From a candidate division WOR-3 bacterium (GTDB taxonomy: Bacteria; Hydrothermota; Hydrothermia; Hydrothermales; Hydrothermaceae): a stretch of DNA of 22,522 nt. The translations under genes were made by a program, and so were the position numbers. The notes under the pieces were generated by a model, which saw only the letters and a list, made by a program, of their open reading frames with translations, ran no database searches and was not told where the DNA came from. This document shows positions 2,275 through 22,522 of this stretch, piece after piece (the first letter of the stretch is position 1; each line of letters begins with the position of its first letter). The stretch is from positions 1 to 22,522 of the forward strand of contig JBDRZD010000031.1 of assembly GCA_039803745.1 (NCBI GenBank), in the 5' to 3' direction.

Positions 2275-3510
2275 TTGGTTAATTTTCTTAATTTTTTCAG
2301 GATTTTAAAAAATAGAAATTTTTTTATTTTTTCAATAAGTCAGGTTTTTTCTCAAATAGGTGATAAGGTAAATCATTTTTCTTTTTTTGCAATTTTAAAA
2401 GACCTTGCTTATGGAAATCCACTTGCTTTTTCCTTTCTTTCAGCCTCAATAACCTTACCTGTTATTCTTTTTTCTCCTTTTGCAGGAATTTTAATTGATA
2501 GGTTTGATAGGAAAAGAATAATGGTTTTTTCAGAGATTTTAAGAGCATTTTTTGTTCTTTTAATCCTCTTTATTGGAATTAAATTTAAATCATTAATTCT
2601 TCTTTATTTTTTTATATTTTTCCTTTTTTTAAGCACACTTTTCTCAAATGTTTCAAAAATTTCTTCAATACCAGAATTTTTAAAAAGTAAAGAGGAAATT
2701 TTAACAGCAAATTCTTTTAACAATATGATTGTAAGAATTTCAACCCTTTTAGCAATGTTTTCTTCTGGAATTTTGATAGAACTTAAGTTATGGAAGAATT
2801 TAAATTTAAAGGGATATGATGTTGTTTTATTTTTAAATTCTTTTCTTTTTATTATATCAGGATTCATTTTATCATTTTTAAGCATAAAGAGAGTCCAGAT
2901 GGAAAAAGAAAAGAGAAATTTTTTCAAAGATTTAAAAGAGGGCTTAAAAATTGCAAATGAAAATAAAAATGTCCTATTTGTATATTTAACCATTATTTCT
3001 CTTGCTTTTTTGGGTTCCATAATTTATGTAATTCTTTCAATATTAATTCAACAGGTTCTTAGTTTTGGAACAAAAGGGATGGGAATAATAGGAACATTTG
3101 CAGCCTTTGGGACAATCCTTTCTGCTTTTTTATTCGGAAATTATGGTAAAAATCTTAATAAAATAAAGGTGATAACTTATTCTTTCTTTTCTTTAGCAGT
3201 GATAATATTTTTATTTTCTTTTATAAATAGACTTTCTTTTTTAATTTTAATTTCTTTTATAGGCGGTCTTTTTATTGCACCAATAATGATTTCTCAGGAT
3301 ACAATAATACATGAGGAAGTGAATGTTAATTATAGAGGAAGAATATTTTCATTTCGTGAATTTTTTGTGAATACTCTCTTTGTTATTTTTGGGTTTTTAA
3401 ATGGAATTTCTGGTAAGTATATAGGAGCAAAAGAGACAATTATTATATGTTCAATTTTTCTCTTCTTTTTGAATATATTTTCCATCTTAATTTATAATTT
3501 TAAAAAATGA
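2275..3510 (+). CDS. MFS transporter (DHA3/LplT-like)
   Basis: About 12 hydrophobic segments; MFS motif A (AGILIDRFDRKRIM); 'SQIGDKV' helix 1; 'YRGRIFS' C-terminal loop; TTG start. Confidence 0.88.
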   Translation: MVNFLNFFRILKNRNFFIFSISQVFSQIGDKVNHFSFFAILKDLAYGNPLAFSFLSASITLPVILFSPFAGILIDRFDRKRIMVFSEILRAFFVLLILFIGIKFKSLILLYFFIFFLFLSTLFSNVSKISSIPEFLKSKEEILTANSFNNMIVRISTLLAMFSSGILIELKLWKNLNLKGYDVVLFLNSFLFIISGFILSFLSIKRVQMEKEKRNFFKDLKEGLKIANENKNVLFVYLTIISLAFLGSIIYVILSILIQQVLSFGTKGMGIIGTFAAFGTILSAFLFGNYGKNLNKIKVITYSFFSLAVIIFLFSFINRLSFLILISFIGGLFIAPIMISQDTIIHEEVNVNYRGRIFSFREFFVNTLFVIFGFLNGISGKYIGAKETIIICSIFLFFLNIFSILIYNFKK

Positions 3511-5540
3511 AAAAAGTTATTATTGTTGAGTCTCCTACAAAAGCAAAAACTTTGAGTAAAATGCTTGGAAAAGAATTTAAAGTTCTTGCTTCAAAAGGAC
3601 ATGTTGTCGATTTACCTGAAGAAAGATTTGGAATAAGTATAAAAAAGGGTTTTAAACCATATTTTGAAATAATAAGGGGTAAAAAGGATATTGTGGATTA
3701 TTTAAAAAAAGAGGCACAGGATGCAAACCTTATTCTTCTTGGTTCTGACCCTGATAGGGAAGGGGAAGCAATAGCATATCATATTTCAAGAATTTTAAAA
3801 AGGGATGATTCAAAAAGAGTTCTTTTTTATGAAATATCAAAAGAAAGGGTGAAAGAAGCAATAGAAAATCCAGTTGAAATAGATATGAATAAGGTTTATT
3901 CACAATTTGCAAGAAGGATACTTGATAGAATTGTTGGTTATTCAACAAGCCCTCTTTTATGGAAAGTAATGAAGAGAGGGCTTTCAGCAGGAAGAGTTCA
4001 AACTGTTGCACTAAGATTAATTGTTGAAAGGGAAAAGGAGAGGCAAAAGTTTGTTCCCGAAAAATATTATGAAATTGAAGTAATTTTTGAAAAAGATGGT
4101 AAAGAGTTTTTGGGTAAATTAAAAGAAAAATTAAAAGAAAAAGATAAGGCTGAAGAAATAAAAGAGAAAATCCAAAAAATTGGAAAAGGAATTGTAAAAG
4201 AAATAGAGGAAGAGGAAAAAGAAGTTTTTCCCCTGCCACCTCTAAAAACAAGCACTCTTCAGCAGGAATGCTCAAAAAGGTTCGGATTTTCTGCAGAAAG
4301 AACAATGAAAATAGCACAATCTCTCTATGAAGGTAAAGAAATTGGAGAAAAAGTTACAGGACTTATAACTTATATGAGAACAGACTCTTTAAGATTAAGC
4401 GAATATTTTATAAATAGTTCAAGGAAATTTATAAAAGAAAATTTTGGAGAAAATTATTTACCTCAAAAACCTAATGTTTTTGAAAAAAAGGAAAAATTTG
4501 TTCAGGGTGCTCATGAGGCAATAAGACCTGTTAATTTAGAATTAATTCCAGAAAATATAAAAGAGTATTTAAGTGAAGAAGAATATAAGGTTTATGATTT
4601 AATCTATAAAAGGGCATTGGCTTCGCAAGGTAAAAGTGCTGTGATACAAAAGAAAAAGGTTCAAATTGAAGTATCAGAATATTTATTTGAATCACAGGGA
4701 CAAAAACTTTTATTTGACGGATTCTATAAAATAATTTCTGAGAAACCAAAAGAAGTCATTTTACCCTCCCTTTCTAAAGATGAAGAAATTAAAATATTAA
4801 ATATAAATATTTTAGAAAAAGAAACAGAACCTCCTTCAAGATACACTGAGGCAAGCCTTATTAAAAAACTTGAAGAACTCGGTATAGGAAGACCGAGCAC
4901 ATATGCACCAACAATTAAAACTTTATTTGATAGAGAATATATTAAAAGAGAAAATAAAAACCTTATTCCTACAGAACTCGGTATGAAAACAATTGAAGTT
5001 TTAATCCCTCAATTTAATGAAATATTTGAGTATAAATTTACAGCAAAGATGGAAGAAGAATTAGATGAAATTGAAGAAGGAAAGAAAGAATGGAGAGAAT
5101 TTTTAAAAGAATTCTATGAAAGATTTGAAAGAGAAATTGAGAAATTTAAAGAAGAGATGAAAAGTATAAAGGAAAAAGTAGAGGAGAAGATAGAGAAGAA
5201 ATGTCCATTATGCGGAAAAGAACTTGTGGTTAAATGGAGTAAATATGGGAAATTTGTTTCCTGTTCAGGATATCCTGAATGTAAATATAAAGAAAAATAT
5301 GGAGAAATTAAGTGTCCTGTTTGTAAAAAGGGGTATCTTGTTAAAAGAAAGGGTAAAAATGGAATATTCTATGGATGCTCAAATTATCCGGATTGTGAAT
5401 TTACTTTAACAGGTGAAATAATAAAAGAAAAATGTCCTGAATGTTCCTTTGAAATAATTTCAAAAATTAAGAAAAATAAAAAAACTTTTTATTTTTGTCC
5501 AAATTGTAAAAAATATTTAAAAATAAGGAGGTCAAAATGA
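3507..5540 (+). CDS. topA: DNA topoisomerase I (type IA) with C-terminal C4 zinc ribbons
   Basis: TOPRIM IVESPTKAK and SDPDREGEAI; SAGRVQ; catalytic ITYMRTDS; QGAHEAIRP; GIGRPSTYA; zinc ribbons CPLC..CSGYPEC, CPVC..CSNYPDC, CPEC..CPNC. Confidence 0.97.
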   Translation: MKKVIIVESPTKAKTLSKMLGKEFKVLASKGHVVDLPEERFGISIKKGFKPYFEIIRGKKDIVDYLKKEAQDANLILLGSDPDREGEAIAYHISRILKRDDSKRVLFYEISKERVKEAIENPVEIDMNKVYSQFARRILDRIVGYSTSPLLWKVMKRGLSAGRVQTVALRLIVEREKERQKFVPEKYYEIEVIFEKDGKEFLGKLKEKLKEKDKAEEIKEKIQKIGKGIVKEIEEEEKEVFPLPPLKTSTLQQECSKRFGFSAERTMKIAQSLYEGKEIGEKVTGLITYMRTDSLRLSEYFINSSRKFIKENFGENYLPQKPNVFEKKEKFVQGAHEAIRPVNLELIPENIKEYLSEEEYKVYDLIYKRALASQGKSAVIQKKKVQIEVSEYLFESQGQKLLFDGFYKIISEKPKEVILPSLSKDEEIKILNINILEKETEPPSRYTEASLIKKLEELGIGRPSTYAPTIKTLFDREYIKRENKNLIPTELGMKTIEVLIPQFNEIFEYKFTAKMEEELDEIEEGKKEWREFLKEFYERFEREIEKFKEEMKSIKEKVEEKIEKKCPLCGKELVVKWSKYGKFVSCSGYPECKYKEKYGEIKCPVCKKGYLVKRKGKNGIFYGCSNYPDCEFTLTGEIIKEKCPECSFEIISKIKKNKKTFYFCPNCKKYLKIRRSK

Positions 5541-6856: not shown

Positions 6857-8202
6857 AAGGGAGCATAATTATTATGATGAGTTTTTTGATTAATGTAAAT
6901 GGTGGCGCAGGTTATAAAAAAGAAGTTTTAAAGAATGGATTAAAGGTTCTTGCTTATGAAAAAACAAAATTGCCGATGGTTGTCTGTATTTATTCATTTA
7001 AAATAGGCTCAATTCATGATCCAAAGGGTAAAGAAGGGCTTGTTAATTTATTGGTCAGCATGCTGGAAAAGGGAACTGAGAAAAGAACTTATACACAAAT
7101 AGGAGAGGAATTTGCAATTCTGGGAACAAGATTTTCCTATGATGTTTCCCGCACATTTTCAACTTTGGGGATCACCACTCTCTCGGAAAATTTAGAAAAA
7201 TCCCTTGAAATTTTATCCGACATAATATACAATCCCACATTTCCTAAAGAAGAATTTGAAAAAGAAAAGGAGAGATTGATAAATGAGATAATTTCAAACA
7301 AATCTGAACCAGATTATGTTTCTGAAATACTTTTTACAAAATACATATGCAAAGACCACCCTCTTGGACACCTGCCAGAAGGTGATGAAAACTCTTTAAA
7401 GAATATAAATCTTGAGGACATTAAAGAATTTTATAAAAAATATTTTGTTCCTGAAAATGCAATATGCGTGATTGTTGGACCCCAATCCCCTGATGAACTC
7501 ATTGATTTTGTTAAAAAGTATTTTGAGAAAGAGAAAAAGGGCGAAAATCTTCCTTGGTTTAGATTGCCACCCCCTATTTCAGGAATAAATGTGAAAATTT
7601 TCCATATGAATATCAATCAATCATATATAACTATGGGTCATTTTGGTCCATTAAGAAAATCTCCTGATTTTAATGCTGCAAGGGTTATGAATTACATATT
7701 TGGTGGGGGTGGTTTTTCTTCAAGACTTTTTGAAGAAATAAGGAATAAAAGGGGTTATGCGTATAGTGTAGGTTCAGGATTTTTAATTACAGATCCTTAT
7801 CCATCACTTTATACTTTTGGATTGCAAACAAAAATTGAAAATACAAATGACGCAATAAGGGTCATTTTTGAAGAAATAAATAAAATTAAAAGAGAAATTA
7901 AAGATAAGGAAATTGAAGATACAAAAAGTTATTTTAAAGGTTATCTTCCAAGAATAACAGAAACATATTATCAAATTGCAACAAACCTTCTAACACAGGA
8001 ACTTTATGAACTTCCGGAATTTTTCTGGGAAAAGGAAATTAAAGAAATTGAAAATCTGAAAAAAGATGAAATAATTGAAGCAGCAAGAAAATACCTTGAT
8101 CCTCAAAATATTTTAATTATTATCGTAACCGATACCTCAAAATATAAATGGAAAGTAGAAGGAATTGAAAATGTAAATGTAGAAATTATCCAAAAATTAT
8201 GA
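6853..8202 (+). CDS. M16 family peptidase, non-catalytic partner subunit
   Basis: M16 layout but HxxEH replaced by NLLVS; retains GGGGFSSRLFEEIRNKRGYAY (R/Y pair) typical of the partner in heterodimeric M16B enzymes; ATGA-coupled to the catalytic subunit. Confidence 0.88.
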   Translation: MKGSIIIMMSFLINVNGGAGYKKEVLKNGLKVLAYEKTKLPMVVCIYSFKIGSIHDPKGKEGLVNLLVSMLEKGTEKRTYTQIGEEFAILGTRFSYDVSRTFSTLGITTLSENLEKSLEILSDIIYNPTFPKEEFEKEKERLINEIISNKSEPDYVSEILFTKYICKDHPLGHLPEGDENSLKNINLEDIKEFYKKYFVPENAICVIVGPQSPDELIDFVKKYFEKEKKGENLPWFRLPPPISGINVKIFHMNINQSYITMGHFGPLRKSPDFNAARVMNYIFGGGGFSSRLFEEIRNKRGYAYSVGSGFLITDPYPSLYTFGLQTKIENTNDAIRVIFEEINKIKREIKDKEIEDTKSYFKGYLPRITETYYQIATNLLTQELYELPEFFWEKEIKEIENLKKDEIIEAARKYLDPQNILIIIVTDTSKYKWKVEGIENVNVEIIQKL

Positions 8203-9122
8203 TACAACAAAACCTCTTTTTGATCCCAATGAAAGAAATTAAAGAAGAAGATTATTTAGAATTTATAAAATCGCATAATACAGTCATAATTGAGGATGTG
8301 GAAATACCATTAATGAAAAATAAGCATAAAATTGAGGAATTTGAGCCAAAGGATTTCAAATTGGAAACAACTACCGTGTGGTCATTTCCAGATAGAGGAG
8401 AATGGGCAACTCATAAAGGTAATTATAGAGGAAATTGGTCACCTTATATCCCAAGAAATTTGATTTTAAGGTATACAAAAGAAAACGATATAGTTTTAGA
8501 CCAGATGGTTGGATCAGGCACAACTTTAATTGAATGTAAATTGCTAAATAGAAGAGGTATCGGAGTAGATATTAACATTAACGCAATAATGCTTACTCGG
8601 GATAGGCTTAATTTTGAATATAAGTATAACCCGGAAATAAGAACATATGTAGGAGATGCAAGAAATTTAAATTTGATAAATGATGAAAGTATTGATTTGA
8701 TTGCTACTCATCCTCCTTATGCCAACATAATAAGATTCTCTAAAACCAATATTGAAGGTGACCTTTCAAATATTAAAAATATTGACGAATTCGTTGAAGA
8801 GATGTATAAAGTAGCAAAGGAATGTTATCGGGTATTAAAGCCTGGAAAATATTGCTGCATTCTTATTGGTGACACAAGGAAAAAGAAACATTTTGTTCCT
8901 ATTTCTGCACGAGTATTAGAAGTTTTTTTATCTGTTGGTTTTATTTTGCGCGAAGATATTATAAAGCTTCAATGGAAAATGAAAAGCACGAGAGAAAAAT
9001 GGCGAGGGAGGAATTACGATTTTTTACTTTTATCTCATGAACATTTATATATTTTTAGAAAACCGAAAAAAGAAGAAAGATTATCATCAGTTAAATATAG
9101 TATTTGGTGGAGGACAAAATGA
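8199..9122 (+). CDS. Amino (N4-C/N6-A) DNA methyltransferase, motif I before motif IV
   Basis: SAM-binding DQMVGSGTT, GVDIN, GDAR, catalytic-type THPPY, RVLKPGK, HEHLYIFRKP. Confidence 0.8.
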   Translation: MIQQNLFLIPMKEIKEEDYLEFIKSHNTVIIEDVEIPLMKNKHKIEEFEPKDFKLETTTVWSFPDRGEWATHKGNYRGNWSPYIPRNLILRYTKENDIVLDQMVGSGTTLIECKLLNRRGIGVDININAIMLTRDRLNFEYKYNPEIRTYVGDARNLNLINDESIDLIATHPPYANIIRFSKTNIEGDLSNIKNIDEFVEEMYKVAKECYRVLKPGKYCCILIGDTRKKKHFVPISARVLEVFLSVGFILREDIIKLQWKMKSTREKWRGRNYDFLLLSHEHLYIFRKPKKEERLSSVKYSIWWRTK

Positions 9123-12947: not shown

Positions 12948-14129
12948 TTAAAATATACTAAAATTATAAGAAATTGAAAGATTTGTAAAGAATCCTGACT
13001 CTTTTCCTGAAATTAAAAATGGTCCTTTAAAGAAAAGGTCTTTTACTAAAACTCCATCAATTCTGAATCCATCTTTAATAAAAGAAAGACCAAGTTCAAT
13101 GTTGAATTCTTCCTGGTCCATTATCTCATTTTTGAGACCGCTCATTTCATAATTTTTATCTTTCAAACTTCTTAAAAGGCTTTTTCTTATTCCGCCTCTT
13201 ATTTCAAAATGCTTACCAAGTTCCATTTCGCTTCCGAGAATGCCATTTAAATGAAAAGCATATAAACTTCCTTTCCTTTTTATAACTCCCGCTATCCTTG
13301 TAGTATCAATTTTTAAATAATTTGTATTTAATCCTGTGATAATTTTTAAATTTTCAAGGGGCTCAGTATAATATCCAATATTTATGTTAAATTCATCCCT
13401 CTTTTGCTCAAATTCAGAAATCGTTGCTCCTGTTCTTTCTTCATACTTTAGGGGATAAGAATAAAAATGAAATCCAAAAATAAAATTGGAATATTCAGTT
13501 AAATCCATAACATATCTTAAATTCAAACCATAAAAGGAATTTCCCTTTCCATCAATTGTATCTGCTATTACAAGTGTATAATATTCCTGATAAAAAGAAT
13601 TTAGTGAAAAATGTAAAGAAATATCAATATTTTTGTTTTCTGAGATTGAATAAGAAAGAGATGGCATGATTTCAATGTCCTTTGTTGAGAGTCTCGGAGA
13701 TTCTGGGAGAAGTGTATCTTCTTTCTTTTCGCTTACATATACAAAAGAAATCCCTGTGCCCAAATTAATTTTTTCACTTATGTTTTTTGCCCATAATATT
13801 TCAAATCCTCTTGATTCCTTCAATTCTTTTGAAGGATAGGAAATAATATGGGGATAAAAATAAGAAGGATAATTGTAAATAAAAGAGAAAGCACCAACTT
13901 TTTCAAATTTCATATTCACTCCTGCAAAAGAAATATACGGAAGGTTCTGAAGTGAGGAATCGGTAAATTCAATCCATAAGATATCAGGGAATTTAAGGAG
14001 GAGAGCAGGGTAAAGGTAGGTAAGGGATGGATCATATACAAAGTCTTTAACATTTCCAAAAGATTTTATCCTTGATTCAGATGCATATAAAAATAAAAAT
14101 CCTGTCAGTATATAAATTAATTTTTTCAT
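12948..14129 (-). CDS. Hypothetical outer-membrane beta-barrel protein
   Basis: True start is ATG 14129 (AAGGAGA at 14140-14134); signal peptide [16 protein letters not shown]; alternating amphipathic strands; C-terminal [10 protein letters not shown]. The ORF-track extension to 14177 runs into the tRNA. Confidence 0.7.
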
Positions 14130-14153
14130 AAAATCTCCTTTTAAAAAATTAAA

Positions 14154-14227
14154 TGGGCCCAGGTGGACTCGAACCACCGACCTCGCGCTTATCAGGCGCG
14201 CGCTCTAACCACCTGAGCTATGGGCCC
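14154..14227 (-). tRNA. trnI: tRNA-Ile (anticodon GAT), CCA not encoded
   Basis: Reverse complement folds as GGGCCCA-TA-GCTC-AGGTGGTTA-GAGC-G-CGCGC-CTGATAA-GCGCG-AGGTC-GGTGG-TTCGAGT-CCACC-TGGGCCC-A (74 nt), followed by TTT. Confidence 0.97.
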
Positions 14228-14282: not shown

Positions 14283-15773
14283 TTACTTTAACAATTTTAT
14301 TTCAATTCTTCTATTCAATGCTCTTCCTTCTTCTGTTTCATTTGAAGCAACAGGTTTTGTATCTCCATAACCAACTGTTTTTATTCTTTCAGGCTCTATT
14401 TTAAATTTATTAACAATATATCTTTTAACTGCTTCAGCCCTTGCCTTTGAAAGTTCAAGATTTGATGGAAATTCAGGTGTTGATACAGGGACATTATCAG
14501 TATGACCTTCTATCTCTATTTTTAATTCAGGATTCATTAAAAGAATATTTCCGATTTCGTCAATGATTGGGTATGAAATTGGTATGATTTCTGCCTTTCC
14601 TGTTTCGAAATATATGTTGTGAATAATCAATTTTTGTTCTTTCTTAAACAATCCAAAATTTTCTTCTATTTTTCTTTCAGGTAGAACATTTGTTTCTTTT
14701 TCTTGAGAAAAATAAATTTTATTTTCAGGTATAACTTTTAGATGGTATTTACCTGCAGGAAGCCTCGGGATTGAATATTTTCCTTTTATTGTTTGGGATT
14801 CACCACTTATCTTACCTTCATAAATAACAACCGCATTTAAATCTTCACCTGTCTCTGCATCATAAACTCTTCCTTCTATGATTCCTTCATAAGGTCTTTT
14901 TTCAGGGGTTATTTTTATATGTTCAGGAATCAAAAATGAAGTTGATACCCTATGCGTAAGACCCAATTTACCATAATCAGCAAACGCATAATCAAATGTA
15001 ATATTTTTCCATCTTATTCCACCCCCAAATGTAAATTTATTTATTTCATCAATGAATCTATAACCCATCCTTAAAGCAACAACCTCTTTTATCCAGAATT
15101 CTATTCCTGTGTTTATATGATATCTTTTTCCGCGCGGGAAAGTTAGATCAAGGAAAATCCCTGAAAATTCTTTTATTCTTTGATAAATTCCTGTTTTTAT
15201 TTCAAAGGGCAATGGATAATTATAATTACCGTATTTCATATTCCATCCAAAATTTTTTATGACAAATCCAAATGATAAATCTTTACTTATCCTTGTTATA
15301 AAACCTAAATCAAAACATGCACCCATTCCTTCTACCTGAGGCAATCTTTCATAAAGGTATTTAAAGTTTATCCCAGGAATAAAATAGTTTGAGATGTAAC
15401 TTGAAAGCGAAAATTGAGCAACATAGGCAATTTGTTCTCCTTTTCCTGTATAATTTCCTTCTACATCCCTTAGTTCTATATCCTTTGTTCCTGAATATAA
15501 AAAACTTAATTCCGTATTTATATATTTTAACGGAATAAAAATTCCTGAATAGAAGTCTTTAAAATCCAGAAACCAGTGATTATATGAAAAAAATGCTCCT
15601 TTTTCCTTTACAAATGCATGTGATGCAGGATTCCACCATACACCTTGAATATCATTATAAATACCTGTGAAACTTTCTCCAAGAGCAGAAGGTCTTGCAC
15701 CTATCCCAACCCTTAAAAGAGGAAAAATAATTTCCCCTTGATTTAAAATCAATATAAGTATTATCTTTATCAT
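14283..15773 (-). CDS. PorV/PorQ-family (UPF0164/FadL-like) beta-barrel fused to a carboxypeptidase-regulatory-like domain and an OmpA C-terminal peptidoglycan-binding domain
   Basis: LRVGIGARPSALGESF...WWNPAS hatch motif; barrel end FDYAFADYGKLGLTHRVS; IEGRVYDAETGEDL...GKYSIPRLPAGKYHL; OmpA IYFETGKA, IEGHTD, NLELSKARAEAV, GYGDTKPVASN, GRALNRRIE. Confidence 0.85.
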   Translation of the reverse strand: MIKIILILILNQGEIIFPLLRVGIGARPSALGESFTGIYNDIQGVWWNPASHAFVKEKGAFFSYNHWFLDFKDFYSGIFIPLKYINTELSFLYSGTKDIELRDVEGNYTGKGEQIAYVAQFSLSSYISNYFIPGINFKYLYERLPQVEGMGACFDLGFITRISKDLSFGFVIKNFGWNMKYGNYNYPLPFEIKTGIYQRIKEFSGIFLDLTFPRGKRYHINTGIEFWIKEVVALRMGYRFIDEINKFTFGGGIRWKNITFDYAFADYGKLGLTHRVSTSFLIPEHIKITPEKRPYEGIIEGRVYDAETGEDLNAVVIYEGKISGESQTIKGKYSIPRLPAGKYHLKVIPENKIYFSQEKETNVLPERKIEENFGLFKKEQKLIIHNIYFETGKAEIIPISYPIIDEIGNILLMNPELKIEIEGHTDNVPVSTPEFPSNLELSKARAEAVKRYIVNKFKIEPERIKTVGYGDTKPVASNETEEGRALNRRIEIKLLK

Positions 15774-17835
15774 CTCTTCACCGATGTTTTTTTAGTTATT
15801 GTTTTTTTAATTTTTTCACCTTTAAATTCAAAAACATATATATAAACACCCGGTGCTACATAATTTCCTTTTTCATTTTTACCATTCCAGTAAATTATAT
15901 GTTTTCCCCTTTTTAAAGGTTTATTTTTAAATAAAGTTATTATTTTTTCACCAAGCCTTGAATAAACTTCAAGGTTCCCTTTACCATCCTCAGGAACTGA
16001 TATGAAAAAGTTTGTCCCTCTTTTTGAATCAAAGGGTGATTCATAGTTGAATATATAAAGTGGTGGTATTAAATTTATCTTTATTTTTGCTGAATCATAA
16101 AGGGTATTATAAGAATAAAGATAACCCTTTAATCTTATTATACATATATCCTCTGTATCGGAAATTGAATAATTGAATTCAGGTGCTCTTAAATATATTG
16201 AGAAATAATTTTTATTTGAAGGCTCACATACCCCGAGATCTATATTCCCATTATGATTGTTATCAATTAAGGGATTTAATCCCTGTGAATCCCTTAATTC
16301 TATATTTAAATTAGCCCCTGAAAATGAGTATTCCAATTCAATATAATCATTTGAATTGCCCTGAAATAAAGAATAAAGATTTATTAAGAAAGAGGAATTA
16401 TATGGAATAGAAATCTCTGTATCAGGCTCAAGAATTATTGAATAAAATACTTTTTTAACCTGTGTAAATAAATTTGCATTATCCCATACAGATGGGTTAT
16501 TTGTAGAACTTGCCCTTATTATTGCAACATCATTATCCTCCGAACTTGCATTTTGAGGAATATCAACATTCACATAAATTTTTTGAAAAGCAAGAGGTGC
16601 CAAAATAACATCCTGATAACCATCATTGTTGTTATCATTTAATGGCATATTTGTTAAACTATCATATATAATCCTTTCAGCCCAGTTGCTTTGAAGAACA
16701 TAAACATTTATTATATCCTGGGAGTTGCCTGAATTTATAACTTTTAAATAATACCTGATTTTTTCTCCAGGAGCCCCTTCCTTCTGCTGGTCAGGCTCTA
16801 TATAAACTGCTGCAGAAACTTTAACCTCTGTTATTATCCTCGCTGAATCAGAAATACTTAAATTGTTTGATACCCCCTTAATAAAAGCAGTATCACGAAT
16901 ACCACCAGATGAATTTTCAGGAATTGAAATCTCAAAAATTATAAATCCTGTATCTTTTGCAGGCACATATATTTTATTTATTAAATTACCAAGTGTATCA
17001 GTTATCCTCGCATTCCAGTTCTGATTATGATGGAATGAAAGATTTATCGTATCAATACTTTCTTGATTGTTTATAACTCTTAATCTATATTTTAAATTAT
17101 CACCCGGATTTCCATAAGAAAAAGTGTCAGGCTCAACTAAAAGATAGGGCATATGATATAAATAGGTCATTACAAGCGCAGAATCATAAATTGAGTTAAT
17201 CCAGGAAGACCTCGCAATCACCTTTGTTAAATTCTGTGAATCAGGTGTTGCAGGTAATGGAGTAACCCATAAAATTATTTTTACAGTATCCTTTGGAAAA
17301 GTTTTTACAAAGTTTATTATTTGAGAACCCGTTGAATCTGTTATATAAGAAATATAACCTGAAGAACTGTTTGTATAAGATAATAAAATTGAATCTTTAA
17401 ATTCACCTGTATTTATTACCCTTAAAGGGTAGGGGATTGTAACACCGGGAACTGTAACACCTTCTGTATCAGGCTCAATCTTTAATGAAATATTACCTGT
17501 TATTTTTGTTATTATCCTTGCAGAATCCCTCTTTAAAGGATTTGAAATTAAATACCCTTTTATATACGTTGTATCACATTCAAATGGCGAAGGATACTCA
17601 GGTGAATATATTTTTAAATTAAAATCAAATGTATCATTCGGAATTAATAAAATCGTATCTATTAAATTGCCAAGTGTATCAGTCAATTTCACAAACCACC
17701 CCGGATGCGTATTTGATGTAAAAAGATAAACAAGTTCATTTGTTTCACCTGTATAAACTGCCTTTACTTTATAAATAACTGAATCCTTTGGATGAACATA
17801 AGAAGATGTATCAGGAAAAATATTCAATAGAGATG
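15770..17835. repeat. Direct repeat copy 1 (2,066 bp)
   Basis: Matches 20108-22173 at constant offset 4,338. Flanks differ immediately (a15769 vs t20107; a17836 vs g22174). The 687 encoded residues are identical and no nucleotide mismatch was seen by eye. Confidence 0.95.
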
Positions 17836-19345
17836 AAGAGAAAAAAAATTTAATTGAATCCAGTTTTATTTTCGTTGTTTGGAGATAATCCAAATAAAAT
17901 GTTAAGCGGTATTGGAAATATCTTCCTTCGGGTGGATATGGTTGTCCGGGCTGGATTATATACCAGGAACTCCAATTTAAAGAATCCAGAGAACTTCTCA
18001 TCTCCACATTCACTCCATTAGGAAAATTCCCATAGTATTTTACAGAATCTAATTGGGCAAGATTATTTGTATTGTAAATACTTGATAAATATCTTTCATA
18101 AGGTAATCTATTCCATAAATTACCAAGGTCCTCATAAATTACATCATTTGATGAATTCGGGAATTCAAAAAAATTAAGGGAATCAAAGCCCTGCGGAGAA
18201 TTCCAGTACAATCGTGCATAATTAGAAATAGAGCCTGTTAATAAATCCATATAAGAGTCACGATTCCAATCCGCAATCATGAGAGTATGAAGTCCAGAAT
18301 ACCCCGGCAGAGAAAAATAATTGGTATAAGTAGGTCCCCAATAAATTAATACTGAATTTAAGTTTCTTTGATTCATTACTATATCCAGATACTCATCTCC
18401 ATTAACTTCATTTATTGACATATTTCCATTACCACTTCCCACCAAATACTGAATCTGGGAAAAATTCGGTCCCCACAAAATTGCGTCCGCATTAGAACCA
18501 ATTGAAGAAATCACGACATCCAGGTATCCATCATTATTTAAATCTGCTATTGAAAAATCCCACCCTCCTGGAAAAGAATATACAAAAGAATTTGTAAAAT
18601 CTGGGCCCCAAAAAATAATAAACTTGGGAGTAGTAGACTGTGCATCAGAAATGGTAGCTATATCAAGATATGTATCATAATTTAAATCCACAAGTTCTAT
18701 TTTTTGCATCATAAAGGAACCCTGTAATATTTTATCAGGATAACGACCCCCAAATGGACCAGGTCCATAATATATATTAATCTGGAAACCCGTGGTTACA
18801 AATATATCCAAATATCCATCATAATTAATATCTCCAGCAGTAACTTGATTTACAAGATCGGATAAATAACTTAAAATATCAGAGGGAATAGGTGAGATAT
18901 TTCCATTATTATCTGAAAGATGAATAGAAGCAAGACCACTTCCGTTATAAGAACCTATTAAAGCATCAAGATATCCATTTTCATCTATATCAATAAGAGA
19001 AACTGCTTGTGGTCCAGCTTGTAAATTGGTAATTAAATAATAATTATTTAAATTAAATCCCTCTGCAGAACCCCAATATATATAAACTTTTCCTTCTGGA
19101 AAAGAAGTAAGAACCATTTCAGGCCATCCATCATCATTTATGTCTCTATCCTGTCCAATTATTCTTAACCCGCCACTCGCAGGAGAATATATTCTTCCTC
19201 CTAATTTCCAACTTATTAAATTATTTTGAAATTGATGGCATTCAAATCCATCAATAAAATCTTGATGGGTTTTTTCAATCCATATATCACCATAAATAAA
19301 ATTTAAAAATAAAAGTGAAATAAAAATAAATTTTTTAATCTCCAT
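15770..19345 (-). CDS. Large secreted/surface protein: FG-GAP-like beta-propeller head, five Ig-like stalk repeats, C-terminal FlgD-Ig/T9SS-like sorting domain
   Basis: Signal peptide MEIKKFIFISLLFLNFIYG (start 19345; 19360 also possible). Seven D-x-[ND]-x-DG-x-x-D-like motifs, most with I[YF]WG-type strands. Five ~115-aa repeats starting x-I/V/L-[EF]-PD. CTD NYESPF...VYSRLGEKI...YWNGKNEKGNYVAPGVYIY...KK. Confidence 0.82.
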   Translation of the reverse strand: MEIKKFIFISLLFLNFIYGDIWIEKTHQDFIDGFECHQFQNNLISWKLGGRIYSPASGGLRIIGQDRDINDDGWPEMVLTSFPEGKVYIYWGSAEGFNLNNYYLITNLQAGPQAVSLIDIDENGYLDALIGSYNGSGLASIHLSDNNGNISPIPSDILSYLSDLVNQVTAGDINYDGYLDIFVTTGFQINIYYGPGPFGGRYPDKILQGSFMMQKIELVDLNYDTYLDIATISDAQSTTPKFIIFWGPDFTNSFVYSFPGGWDFSIADLNNDGYLDVVISSIGSNADAILWGPNFSQIQYLVGSGNGNMSINEVNGDEYLDIVMNQRNLNSVLIYWGPTYTNYFSLPGYSGLHTLMIADWNRDSYMDLLTGSISNYARLYWNSPQGFDSLNFFEFPNSSNDVIYEDLGNLWNRLPYERYLSSIYNTNNLAQLDSVKYYGNFPNGVNVEMRSSLDSLNWSSWYIIQPGQPYPPEGRYFQYRLTFYLDYLQTTKIKLDSIKFFFSSSLLNIFPDTSSYVHPKDSVIYKVKAVYTGETNELVYLFTSNTHPGWFVKLTDTLGNLIDTILLIPNDTFDFNLKIYSPEYPSPFECDTTYIKGYLISNPLKRDSARIITKITGNISLKIEPDTEGVTVPGVTIPYPLRVINTGEFKDSILLSYTNSSSGYISYITDSTGSQIINFVKTFPKDTVKIILWVTPLPATPDSQNLTKVIARSSWINSIYDSALVMTYLYHMPYLLVEPDTFSYGNPGDNLKYRLRVINNQESIDTINLSFHHNQNWNARITDTLGNLINKIYVPAKDTGFIIFEISIPENSSGGIRDTAFIKGVSNNLSISDSARIITEVKVSAAVYIEPDQQKEGAPGEKIRYYLKVINSGNSQDIINVYVLQSNWAERIIYDSLTNMPLNDNNNDGYQDVILAPLAFQKIYVNVDIPQNASSEDNDVAIIRASSTNNPSVWDNANLFTQVKKVFYSIILEPDTEISIPYNSSFLINLYSLFQGNSNDYIELEYSFSGANLNIELRDSQGLNPLIDNNHNGNIDLGVCEPSNKNYFSIYLRAPEFNYSISDTEDICIIRLKGYLYSYNTLYDSAKIKINLIPPLYIFNYESPFDSKRGTNFFISVPEDGKGNLEVYSRLGEKIITLFKNKPLKRGKHIIYWNGKNEKGNYVAPGVYIYVFEFKGEKIKKTITKKTSVKR

Positions 19346-20111
19346 AATTTTTACATACATTCTTTTTTGCCACCACTGTATACCCTAAGGTAAAACGATC
19401 CGAACTAACCGTTTTTTCCAAAATAAGAGCCAGAATATTCATTAATATTGAAAATATAAATATTAATGGAAATAAAAATAAAAGCAAAATCCATTTGAAA
19501 AAGAATTTATAGCCGATTATCTTTTGAATAATATACATTAGATTGAGATTAAAAAATATACCCCATATGGTTCCAAAGTTCCCTCTTTTTACATATTCTA
19601 TAATTTGAAAATTATTCTTTTTCATCATATCTTGAATCCCAAATACTGTCCACCTCCTGTAATCATAAGGTATATCATGAAGGGGATATAAAAAAGGAAC
19701 CGAAAAACAAAAAATTCCTTCATCTTTCAAAATTCTGTTAATTTCTCTTAAAGCAGCCTCAGGATCGTCTATATGTTCGATAACATCTAAAAATAAAACT
19801 GTATCGATAGCTGAACTCTTTATACATAATTTTCTTGCGTCTCCGTAAATATGCGGTTTCTTCCCATAGGTTTCTTCATATAATTTGCTGGTTGGTGGAT
19901 AATCAAGGGAAATATACGAATTTGTTTTTTTGATAACTGCGTCTTTATACCATTGGGAACCTGAGCCAATATCTAATGTAATTCCTTTTATATACTTTGT
20001 TAAAAATTCAATTTCCTTTTTACGAAATTTTAAGGTAAGATATTGAGGATGAATAAAGATATTGCCTAATCTCTCTTTAAATAATCCCCATACTTTTTTG
20101 AAAAATTTCAT
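19335..20111 (-). CDS. Class I SAM-dependent methyltransferase (Methyltransf_11-like)
   Basis: LDIGSG, GDARKL, DTVLFLDVIEHIDDP, EINRILK..G, SVPF..PLH..PYDYRRWT; hydrophobic C-terminal segment. Confidence 0.88.
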   Translation of the reverse strand: MKFFKKVWGLFKERLGNIFIHPQYLTLKFRKKEIEFLTKYIKGITLDIGSGSQWYKDAVIKKTNSYISLDYPPTSKLYEETYGKKPHIYGDARKLCIKSSAIDTVLFLDVIEHIDDPEAALREINRILKDEGIFCFSVPFLYPLHDIPYDYRRWTVFGIQDMMKKNNFQIIEYVKRGNFGTIWGIFFNLNLMYIIQKIIGYKFFFKWILLLFLFPLIFIFSILMNILALILEKTVSSDRFTLGYTVVAKKNVCKNYGD

Positions 20112-22173
20112 CTCTTCACCGATGTTTTTTTAGTTATTGTTTTTTTAATTTTTTCACCTTTAAATTCAAAAACATATATATAAACACCCGGTGCTACATA
20201 ATTTCCTTTTTCATTTTTACCATTCCAGTAAATTATATGTTTTCCCCTTTTTAAAGGTTTATTTTTAAATAAAGTTATTATTTTTTCACCAAGCCTTGAA
20301 TAAACTTCAAGGTTCCCTTTACCATCCTCAGGAACTGATATGAAAAAGTTTGTCCCTCTTTTTGAATCAAAGGGTGATTCATAGTTGAATATATAAAGTG
20401 GTGGTATTAAATTTATCTTTATTTTTGCTGAATCATAAAGGGTATTATAAGAATAAAGATAACCCTTTAATCTTATTATACATATATCCTCTGTATCGGA
20501 AATTGAATAATTGAATTCAGGTGCTCTTAAATATATTGAGAAATAATTTTTATTTGAAGGCTCACATACCCCGAGATCTATATTCCCATTATGATTGTTA
20601 TCAATTAAGGGATTTAATCCCTGTGAATCCCTTAATTCTATATTTAAATTAGCCCCTGAAAATGAGTATTCCAATTCAATATAATCATTTGAATTGCCCT
20701 GAAATAAAGAATAAAGATTTATTAAGAAAGAGGAATTATATGGAATAGAAATCTCTGTATCAGGCTCAAGAATTATTGAATAAAATACTTTTTTAACCTG
20801 TGTAAATAAATTTGCATTATCCCATACAGATGGGTTATTTGTAGAACTTGCCCTTATTATTGCAACATCATTATCCTCCGAACTTGCATTTTGAGGAATA
20901 TCAACATTCACATAAATTTTTTGAAAAGCAAGAGGTGCCAAAATAACATCCTGATAACCATCATTGTTGTTATCATTTAATGGCATATTTGTTAAACTAT
21001 CATATATAATCCTTTCAGCCCAGTTGCTTTGAAGAACATAAACATTTATTATATCCTGGGAGTTGCCTGAATTTATAACTTTTAAATAATACCTGATTTT
21101 TTCTCCAGGAGCCCCTTCCTTCTGCTGGTCAGGCTCTATATAAACTGCTGCAGAAACTTTAACCTCTGTTATTATCCTCGCTGAATCAGAAATACTTAAA
21201 TTGTTTGATACCCCCTTAATAAAAGCAGTATCACGAATACCACCAGATGAATTTTCAGGAATTGAAATCTCAAAAATTATAAATCCTGTATCTTTTGCAG
21301 GCACATATATTTTATTTATTAAATTACCAAGTGTATCAGTTATCCTCGCATTCCAGTTCTGATTATGATGGAATGAAAGATTTATCGTATCAATACTTTC
21401 TTGATTGTTTATAACTCTTAATCTATATTTTAAATTATCACCCGGATTTCCATAAGAAAAAGTGTCAGGCTCAACTAAAAGATAGGGCATATGATATAAA
21501 TAGGTCATTACAAGCGCAGAATCATAAATTGAGTTAATCCAGGAAGACCTCGCAATCACCTTTGTTAAATTCTGTGAATCAGGTGTTGCAGGTAATGGAG
21601 TAACCCATAAAATTATTTTTACAGTATCCTTTGGAAAAGTTTTTACAAAGTTTATTATTTGAGAACCCGTTGAATCTGTTATATAAGAAATATAACCTGA
21701 AGAACTGTTTGTATAAGATAATAAAATTGAATCTTTAAATTCACCTGTATTTATTACCCTTAAAGGGTAGGGGATTGTAACACCGGGAACTGTAACACCT
21801 TCTGTATCAGGCTCAATCTTTAATGAAATATTACCTGTTATTTTTGTTATTATCCTTGCAGAATCCCTCTTTAAAGGATTTGAAATTAAATACCCTTTTA
21901 TATACGTTGTATCACATTCAAATGGCGAAGGATACTCAGGTGAATATATTTTTAAATTAAAATCAAATGTATCATTCGGAATTAATAAAATCGTATCTAT
22001 TAAATTGCCAAGTGTATCAGTCAATTTCACAAACCACCCCGGATGCGTATTTGATGTAAAAAGATAAACAAGTTCATTTGTTTCACCTGTATAAACTGCC
22101 TTTACTTTATAAATAACTGAATCCTTTGGATGAACATAAGAAGATGTATCAGGAAAAATATTCAATAGAGATG
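20108..22173. repeat. Direct repeat copy 2 (2,066 bp)
   Basis: Same as copy 1; begins exactly at the TGA stop/ATGA overlap and ends in the head-stalk linker. Confidence 0.95.
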
Positions 22174-22522
22174 GAGGAGATGTTAAAATATTAAAAGATA
22201 TCTCTTCCAGTTTCGGGACATATGTTGGCTTTAGATATGAAAAAATTATTTTATATTGAAGATAATGTTTATCAAATAAATTTTGAGGAATTGAGTCACC
22301 TGAATTCTGGATATAAACCCAGTCTGTCCATGAAGTATCTATTTGAGAAGAATTTCCCGATCTTAAATAAACCTCACATTTTGAGCCCTGTGGCTCATCT
22401 GCAATCCATGAAACTGTCCCACCATTTATAACCGAATCAGGTCCTAAATAAAAAATTGAAGAAATATATTCTTCATAAAAGGCTCTATTATAAGTGTTGC
22501 CTATTTCCATAAAGGAACCGTG
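20108..22522 (-). CDS. Paralogous surface protein (same stalk and sorting domain, divergent N-terminal region), 5'-truncated by window edge
   Basis: Frame is open to the window end (HGSF before the Met at 22510). The last 687 aa are identical to the 15770 protein; the preceding ~113 aa are homologous but strongly diverged. Confidence 0.85.
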   Translation of the reverse strand, partial: HGSFMEIGNTYNRAFYEEYISSIFYLGPDSVINGGTVSWIADEPQGSKCEVYLRSGNSSQIDTSWTDWVYIQNSGDSIPQNLFDKHYLQYKIIFSYLKPTYVPKLEEISFNILTSPPSLLNIFPDTSSYVHPKDSVIYKVKAVYTGETNELVYLFTSNTHPGWFVKLTDTLGNLIDTILLIPNDTFDFNLKIYSPEYPSPFECDTTYIKGYLISNPLKRDSARIITKITGNISLKIEPDTEGVTVPGVTIPYPLRVINTGEFKDSILLSYTNSSSGYISYITDSTGSQIINFVKTFPKDTVKIILWVTPLPATPDSQNLTKVIARSSWINSIYDSALVMTYLYHMPYLLVEPDTFSYGNPGDNLKYRLRVINNQESIDTINLSFHHNQNWNARITDTLGNLINKIYVPAKDTGFIIFEISIPENSSGGIRDTAFIKGVSNNLSISDSARIITEVKVSAAVYIEPDQQKEGAPGEKIRYYLKVINSGNSQDIINVYVLQSNWAERIIYDSLTNMPLNDNNNDGYQDVILAPLAFQKIYVNVDIPQNASSEDNDVAIIRASSTNNPSVWDNANLFTQVKKVFYSIILEPDTEISIPYNSSFLINLYSLFQGNSNDYIELEYSFSGANLNIELRDSQGLNPLIDNNHNGNIDLGVCEPSNKNYFSIYLRAPEFNYSISDTEDICIIRLKGYLYSYNTLYDSAKIKINLIPPLYIFNYESPFDSKRGTNFFISVPEDGKGNLEVYSRLGEKIITLFKNKPLKRGKHIIYWNGKNEKGNYVAPGVYIYVFEFKGEKIKKTITKKTSVKR

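Follow-up and report, generated by a model that had tools for sequence, protein, structure and literature searches.

We analysed a 22,522-nt stretch of DNA (hereafter the window), which is the entire contig C31 of metagenome bin G000 (candidate division WOR-3) and carries two genes for predicted surface proteins that end in the same 2,066-nt sequence. The bin comprises 1.67 Mb in 100 contigs (GC content ~30%, 93.5% complete, smallest contig 2,580 nt), and the stretch is present in 14 public sequencing runs from 8 studies, 13 of the 14 runs being hot-spring metagenomes. On the minus strand, the genes of interest follow one another without spacers in the order B-type gene, methyltransferase gene, gene A and PorV-family/OmpA gene (Table 1). 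Gene A and the B-type gene both encode an N-terminal head, a stalk and a C-terminal tail; the B-type gene is truncated by the window end, 349 nt beyond the end of its repeat copy. We refer to the 2,066-nt stalk/tail repeat as R (copies R1 and R2), to the two segments unique to one side as X and Y (Table 1) and to the side of the PorV-family gene as L. The methyltransferase gene overlaps the stop codon of the B-type gene with its start codon (ATGA) and the start of gene A with its last 26 nt. The 'two tandem genes' of an earlier note on this DNA are therefore two paralogues in one operon, but they are not adjacent.

Table 1. Positions of the genes and segments described in the 22,522-nt window
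Feature	Position	Strand	Remarks
Gene A, 1,196 aa	15770..19360	-	Open reading frame (ORF); signal-like N-terminus, head (residues 1-509) with a propeller and a beta-sandwich, five beta repeats of ~114 aa each, tail resembling those of type IX secretion systems (T9SS)
R1, first copy of the repeat (gene A stalk and tail)	15770..17835	-	Exact 2,066-nt run; its stop codon and the start codon of the PorV-family gene overlap
R2, second copy of the repeat (B-type stalk and tail)	20108..22173	-	Exact match to 15770-17835
Head A, coding part	17836..19360	-	With the methyltransferase gene, makes up unique segment X (17836-20107)
Class I S-adenosylmethionine-dependent methyltransferase, 258 aa, hydrophobic C-terminus	19335..20111	-	Pfam Methyltransf_11, 49.3 bits
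Segment Y, beta-sandwich part of the B-type head	22174..22522	-	97-100% common to alleles B, B2 and B3
PorV/PorQ-family outer-membrane barrel with CarboxypepD_reg-like and OmpA peptidoglycan-binding domains	14283..15773	-	NCBIfam NF033709, 134.7 bits (cut-off 90); Pfam OmpA, 82.2 bits
Putative outer-membrane beta-barrel protein	12948..14177	-	Pfam OMP_b-brl, 22 bits, under the cut-off; synteny in L014 and L039 (other genus)
dCTP deaminase, TPR protein	beyond the outer-membrane barrel candidate in minus-strand order	-	Pfam/NCBIfam matches

The two copies of R are direct repeats with a spacing of 4,338 nt and show 0 differences in an offset comparison, with which a repeat search and self-megablast agree; this letter-perfect identity is a property of the assembly, unproven for a single molecule, and a short-read graph assembly reads both repeat copies off the same graph nodes, which holds for every two-copy sequence considered here. 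R begins precisely at the head/stalk linker and ends with the stop codon. Both proteins have the same last 687 residues, the junctions being FFFSS-SLLNIFPD and ILTSPP-SLLNIFPD (hyphens mark the border), and in each stalk copy the stop codon forms an ATGA overlap with the start of the gene that follows. In the offset comparison, the flanks on either side of the repeat are 20–34% identical per 50 nt, which is the level of random sequence. A nucleotide alignment of both junctions shows that the step in identity is abrupt at the tract borders; it includes synonymous sites, as expected for gene conversion. Purifying selection alone is ruled out as the source of the identity, because there is no difference at synonymous sites either (0 in 2,066 nt). 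The self-alignment thus confirmed the length, the endpoints and the junctions of the exact 2,066-bp repeat that had been claimed in the earlier note.

Upstream of the linker, ~110 residues are 30–31% identical between the two genes (tblastn, E = 4e-4 and 9e-6). A contig from another metagenome, L038, contains a complete B-type gene (1,192 aa); over the full length, heads A and B are 28% identical, and the identity is 100% from the linker onward. As judged from this comparison, heads A and B are old paralogues. The shared block is not the remnant of one recent whole-gene duplication, because the heads are homologous from end to end and yet only 28% identical. The argument of the earlier note that a single simple duplication is insufficient therefore holds: heads of 28–30% identity beside a stalk of 100% identity require recombination or gene conversion.

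The 4,338-bp unit, which consists of head A, the methyltransferase gene and one stalk copy, is strain-variable. A check of related genomes, as proposed in the earlier note, revealed arrangements in which a B-type head and its stalk join the PorV-family gene directly: contig C24 of genome G002 consists of head B2, R and then L (98–99% nucleotide identity), and L038 of the full gene B, R and then L (99% nucleotide identity). The orthologous locus in another genus (G004/L039) has the same single-gene order (72% amino acid identity) and contains neither the methyltransferase gene nor head A. We also compared contigs of the Logan assemblies (k = 31) from four runs of four studies (X1, X3, X9 and X10) with positions 17836-22522. 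In X1 and X3, which belong to two studies, X forms a separate contig reaching 30 nt into R at the methyltransferase side, and the R contigs start exactly at 20108. A contig joining L and R is present in all four runs, with a loose end at 20108 that is identical to 15740-15769. In X9 and X10, contigs bridge the junction between R and Y without a branch; X is found there only as short low-depth contigs, from which no conclusion was drawn. The word depths of X, Y and R (80.9, 193.9 and 267.9–299 in X1; 18.7–22.5, 65.6 and 66.8–91 in X3) may indicate that X is less common than Y; these per-contig values, however, are neither copy numbers nor shares of cells, and an uncovered part proves nothing. 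A joint in X1 from 19483 to 20135, with a side of 21 nt, was treated as spurious, as were loose ends at 20155, 20164 and 20701, which have matches of ~21 nt. In addition, the records of a gene A (P0118) and of a full-length B3 gene (P0139) both give an NCBI contig of 19,728 nt, probably one and the same, which would be an independent assembly of the tandem.

Segment X has no close relatives. No match to head A was found in the three other genomes of the genus (3/3), and its closest relatives are 38% identical among 30 relatives and 37–40% identical among 5.8 billion proteins. The closest relative of the methyltransferase is 36% identical, and none of nine loci of relatives carries a methyltransferase gene beside head-A-like genes. 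At the DNA level, X has only 30–77-nt matches in genomes G001-G004 and G010 (E = 1.5e-6 to 7.8e-4), which were taken as chance. The 90% identity cluster of gene A contains two more members from other NCBI assemblies (three in all). A free 4,338-bp circle of R and X, of the kind that the earlier note proposed to look for, is unlikely as a replicon because, according to the coordinates, it would hold no non-coding sequence; it is possible as a transient excision product.

The B-type propeller is multi-allelic. G002 and L038 match Y and R at 98.8% and 99.1%, and beyond position 22522 they differ at 266 of 404 positions (ungapped comparison of L013:1-404 with L038:2483-2886). The contig end at 22522, where the Logan contigs of X1 and X3 also end, is the divergence point of alleles B, B2 and B3, and the 2.4 kb downstream are common to all three. 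Three protein clusters have a 99% identical stalk: gene A, B, and a third that consists of the B2 sequence of G002 and the B3 sequences (P0139 and fragments). The propellers of B, B2 and B3 are ~57% identical. Between B and B3, identity is 81–97% in the first ~80 alignment columns, 37–69% (mean ~57%) in columns 81–440, and 95–100% from the HGSFME motif (at the window end) onward. Propeller B is ~73% identical to the orthologue in the other genus (G004) and propeller B3 ~77% identical to P0129, while the stalks of these two proteins are both ~69% identical to that of the window. Propeller types have thus been kept across lineages, so that heads group by type and stalks by lineage. Between B and the other-genus orthologue, the divergence is uniform along the gene (75% in the head and 69% in the stalk); that is, for the B-type gene we found the fixed head–stalk pair that the earlier note had named as evidence against its own inference. 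The other-genus orthologue (L014/L039, G004:C2) was read through three in-frame stops, its last ~60 residues forming a separate, overlapping tblastn piece, which may reflect a pseudogene or errors in the assembly. As a separate observation, P0131 and P0133 have stalks 35% identical to that of the window and, according to precomputed Pfam matches, heads of the Kelch type and not of the FG-GAP type, indicating that the stalk occurs with other propeller types over long evolutionary distances.

The allelic nature of the B-type head explains why the bin contig and the Logan contigs of X1 and X3 stop at 22522 and why the piece between contigs C10 and C31 is absent from the bin. None of the bin contigs carries the propeller of B, B2 or B3 or a GT4 glycosyltransferase gene of the L038 type. 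The end of C10 (35922-36361) corresponds to L038:1-440 and stops exactly at the start codon of the gene upstream of the GT4 gene. From this match, C10 and C31 are probably neighbours, separated by an unbinned piece of ~2.4 kb that would contain the GT4 gene and the variable head; the estimated size of this piece is below that of the smallest contig in the bin.

Similar 3' ends were found in a second gene pair. Two tandem PorU-like genes (G000 C7:24881-32545; L042, L043 and L044) encode proteins of 1,267 and 1,223 aa that are ~50% identical, and on C7 their last ~575 nt differ at three positions only. Among four genomes, of which three belong to this genus and one to a different genus, the final 360 nt of the pair are 96–100% identical within each of the four genomes and 65–85% identical between genomes, and the N-terminal parts group by paralogue (a-a 60–82%, a-b ~50%). 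By this comparison, the PorU 3' ends clearly show the pattern of concerted evolution in all four genomes. The pairs in G003 (99%) and G004 (96%) cannot result from assembly collapse. Blocks of 95–98% identity were also observed at contig ends in genes with T9SS-type tails (C15:1-650 and 3518-4167 with C4:1-573; C91:1-370 and 2935-3304). They suggest more tandem cargo genes with shared 3' parts, which would partly explain the fragmentation of the bin. Contig C69 (6,811 nt) has a high GC content in this 30%-GC genome, and its two ends consist of the same 1,465 nt, repeated exactly (period 5,346); it probably represents a small circular element that comes from a different organism and was misbinned.

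In the assemblies, the stalk sequences themselves appear to vary in parallel. In the second assembly (P0118/P0139), all 687 residues are the same in the stalk joined to A and in that joined to B3, as collapse would also give, and both stalks depart from that of the window at the same three residues (309, 312 and 527), so that the copies co-vary in these data. Eight stalk sequences contain 14 variable positions, and the variants are common to different head types.

Head A matches FG-GAP/VCBS propeller families in Pfam (FG-GAP_3, 79.8 bits; FG-GAP, 46.8 bits), and the hydrophobic N-terminus of the gene A product (KKFIFISLLFLNFIYG) is visible in the translation. The stalk contains the motif (E/F)PD(T/Q) at stalk residues 7, 121, 235, 347 and 470, and an AlphaFold model of the gene A product, made from a 10-row alignment (mean predicted local distance difference test, pLDDT, 64), is all-beta with repeating units. 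The 'five Ig-like (immunoglobulin-like) repeats' of the earlier note are consistent with this motif spacing and model, but no internal repeats are listed by self-BLASTP of the stalk or by Pfam. A Foldseek search with the full-length model returned matches of low template-modelling (TM) score (0.09–0.25) to multi-Ig chains, including integrin alpha5 (7nxd_A, rank 45). Given the low TM scores and the pLDDT of 64, these matches were not used as a family assignment. A Pfam scan of the 17 ORFs in the window detected housekeeping and envelope genes only. Among the housekeeping genes (topoisomerase I and two M16 peptidases), a DNA methylase (N6_N4_Mtase, 108 bits) is encoded at 8199-9122.

The C-terminal tail resembles the sorting domains of T9SS cargo, but its scores lie under the curated cut-offs: 19.4 bits against 23 for the type A sorting domain TIGR04183 in both copies, and 21 (CHU_C) and 19.9–21.5 bits (FlgD_ig) against 27 for both Pfam families. 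A paralogue on contig C37, which is 29–32% identical, passes TIGR04183 at 23.3 bits, and 41 of the 47 TIGR04183 matches in the genome are above the cut-off. From these similarities, the stalk tail is probably a diverged member of the T9SS sorting domains. Our search for T9SS machinery covered SprA, PorU and PorV/PorQ among its components. Besides the PorV/PorQ-family gene of Table 1, it detected an SprA-like gene on C35 (379.9 bits summed, cut-off 200), PorU on C7 (428.6 bits to NF033707, cut-off 420) and a second PorU-like copy with 411.5 bits. The likeness of the tail, the SprA-like and PorU-like genes and the 41 TIGR04183 matches together make it likely that the stalk proteins are displayed on the cell surface through a T9SS. 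No paper joining 'WOR-3' and 'type IX secretion' was among the best 10 matches of a literature search.

We consider that homologous recombination or gene conversion homogenises the stalk within this surface-protein family and that no dedicated head-swapping machine is involved, an explanation to which we assign a probability of about 0.62. According to this explanation, the 2,066-nt stalk/tail block would be kept alike either by conversion between the tandem copies or by exchange between strains, and recombination would halt at the two limits of the similarity, which are the head/stalk linker and the stop codon. The 4,338-bp unit could be deleted by recombination between the direct repeats and inserted by a single crossover with a circular copy. 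The B-type propeller would be an old multi-allelic polymorphism with conserved flanks, whose heads could be swapped between strains by ordinary flanking homology. Neither a dedicated enzyme nor a store of silent cassettes would be needed. The direction and timing of these events are what we infer from the comparisons above.

Several points weigh against homogenisation. If gene A originally possessed a stalk no closer than its head (~30%, comparable to the C37 paralogue), homologous conversion would have had no starting point, and at least one illegitimate or foreign event would have been needed to set the resident stalk behind head A. No source for such an event was found, head A and the methyltransferase having no relative above 40% and 36% identity, respectively. 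Short-read collapse would likewise produce identical copies inside one assembly and co-variation from assembly to assembly. In X1 and X3, the Logan data contain variant letters and short alternative contigs inside R, and at 20207 and 20826 the sole X1 contig differs from the window. Variable sites inside R include 20866/20867, 21238-21257 and 22172. The placement of P0118 and P0139 on one contig is deduced solely from the equal size of their contigs (19,728 nt), and the X-less contigs may derive from assemblers that dropped a minor branch, not from X-less genomes.

There are two competing explanations, both unlikely in our view. The copies may be identical simply because they are young, if the methyltransferase gene, head A and a copy of the resident stalk were inserted downstream of the B-type gene in one recent event, by integration of a circular R–X intermediate or by unequal exchange with another strain, with no ongoing conversion. 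The confinement of X to the species (three cluster members and no match in the three other genomes of the genus), the absence of any difference in 2,066 nt, the existence of X-less forms and the ATGA overlap kept at both junctions, as a crossover inside R would leave it, all agree with such an event. However, the two gene-A assemblies differ at three stalk residues and are internally identical, which points to later homogenisation unless it reflects collapse; this lineage repeatedly homogenises 3' ends, as seen in PorU; and a donor with stalk sequence on both sides of X would still be required. Slightly less probable again is an assembly artefact in a strain mixture, in which walking a collapsed node twice gave the tandem path, or at least its perfect identity, and the real copies are noticeably different, or each genome has one stalk gene with alternative heads. 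In favour of an artefact, the window makes up a complete contig in a bin of 100 contigs, R2 ends 349 nt from the contig end and other contigs also break at repeats, the Logan contigs have their breaks precisely where R begins and ends and contain variants inside it, the depths in X1 (not copy numbers) rise from X over Y to R, and several head alleles co-occur, which would explain the break at 22522. What argues against an artefact is the structure of the junction itself: the start codon of the methyltransferase gene lies within the last letters of R, and the X contigs of two runs from two studies include 30 nt of the 3' end of R, so that any genome with X needs stalk sequence on both sides of it. 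Furthermore, the R contig that follows is unbroken for 1,130 nt in X1, the second assembly apparently has both genes on one contig, the near-identical but not identical 3' blocks of PorU represent real biology in this lineage, and a 4.3-kb R–X circle would have no non-coding sequence.

The explanation preferred in the earlier note, a dedicated and programmed cassette array that shuffles propellers onto a constant exported chassis, is very improbable. Its recombinational part stands, because recombination is needed and heads A, B, B2 and B3 all occur on a 99% identical stalk, but a dedicated intragenomic cassette system does not follow from this. Such a system would be in keeping with the four or more heads that share a stalk in the population, with breakpoints that fall sharply at the borders of domains and with a locus whose structure varies between strains. 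On the other hand, the genome has two stalk copies only. The search for further stalk copies with other heads, which the earlier note had proposed, found no other copy and no silent cassette in the 100 contigs (blastn and tblastn with stalk and heads; the C10–C31 piece is missing from them), the remaining matches being the 29–32% identical C37 paralogue and C-terminal-domain-only matches. No recombinase, invertase or reverse transcriptase was detected by Pfam among the 17 ORFs of the 22.5-kb contig, and the upstream part in L038 holds the GT4 glycosyltransferase gene. The head types are old, 73–77% identical to counterparts elsewhere, and not freshly diversified, and the other-genus orthologue diverges uniformly along the gene.

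Homogenisation by ordinary recombination involves no new mechanism; what adds interest is that the propeller is multi-allelic, that the second head gene is optional and that the locus occurs in WOR-3. The locus provides a case of modular surface-protein rebuilding in a phylum with almost no cultured members, in which strains exchange heads and acquire or lose a second head gene against a constant background of stalk, secretion tail and connection to the PorV-family partner. It also extends T9SS-type genes and the concerted evolution of their 3' parts to WOR-3. In practical terms, exact repeats in metagenome bins should not be taken at face value, and contig ends can mark allelic breakpoints. 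A selective reason is conceivable. With three or more propeller alleles of old origin (B, B2 and B3) that have counterparts elsewhere, and an optional, very distant head A with its own methyltransferase, the locus of this uncultured thermophile could be a population-level system of many heads on one stalk, kept by balancing or frequency-dependent selection (for example, by phages or attachment targets), in which recombination unifies the stalk, the tail and the coupling to the PorV/OmpA protein. The homogenisation of 3' ends in T9SS-type genes would then be selected, because it keeps cargo compatible with secretion and anchoring, and would not be a mere by-product. We offer this broader proposal tentatively, as a possibility.

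The earlier note recognised no described system with this layout. However, bacterial surface adhesins usually place a variable distal N-terminal domain on a conserved stalk with a C-terminal anchor. In babA/babB of Helicobacter pylori, paralogous outer-membrane adhesin genes that evolve in concert by gene conversion, a homogenised segment with sharp borders adjoins diverged ligand-binding parts, and RecA-type recombination is enough to produce this pattern. The bab genes are located at separate loci and their conversion also switches expression, whereas the WOR-3 pair is located in one operon and is known from its sequence alone. The sdrC-sdrD-sdrE genes of Staphylococcus aureus and the emm-like genes of streptococci are tandem genes with variable distal domains, a conserved stalk and a C-terminal sorting signal; they differ from the WOR-3 genes in sortase/LPXTG anchoring, phylum and folds. 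In pilE/pilS of Neisseria and vlsE of Borrelia, the variable part is recombined onto a constant part from many silent donor cassettes, whereas none of this type were found in the contigs of G000. Polymorphic toxins have a constant N-terminus, a variable C-terminal toxin and an immunity gene. In the WOR-3 proteins the variable part is an N-terminal FG-GAP propeller, and the Pfam and NCBIfam scans revealed no toxin domain, so that their layout is not that of a polymorphic toxin. The integrin alpha chain, an FG-GAP propeller on Ig-like legs, resembles the modelled protein in build only, and no homology is claimed at a TM score of 0.09–0.25 and a pLDDT of 64.

The nearest described case is that of Kgp, RgpA and HagA of Porphyromonas gingivalis. 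These T9SS cargo proteins differ in their N-terminal domains but have the same repeats in their C-terminal adhesin regions, and a conserved tail (PMC5266723). The same paper states that the repeats break automated assemblies, that variants of the two parts are unlinked between strains, and that the authors proposed recombination and gene conversion for these genes (PMC5266723). The P. gingivalis genes are dispersed and combine protease heads with cleaved-adhesin modules, whereas the WOR-3 locus is a tandem that joins FG-GAP propellers to one uninterrupted 2,066-nt block reaching to the stop codon.

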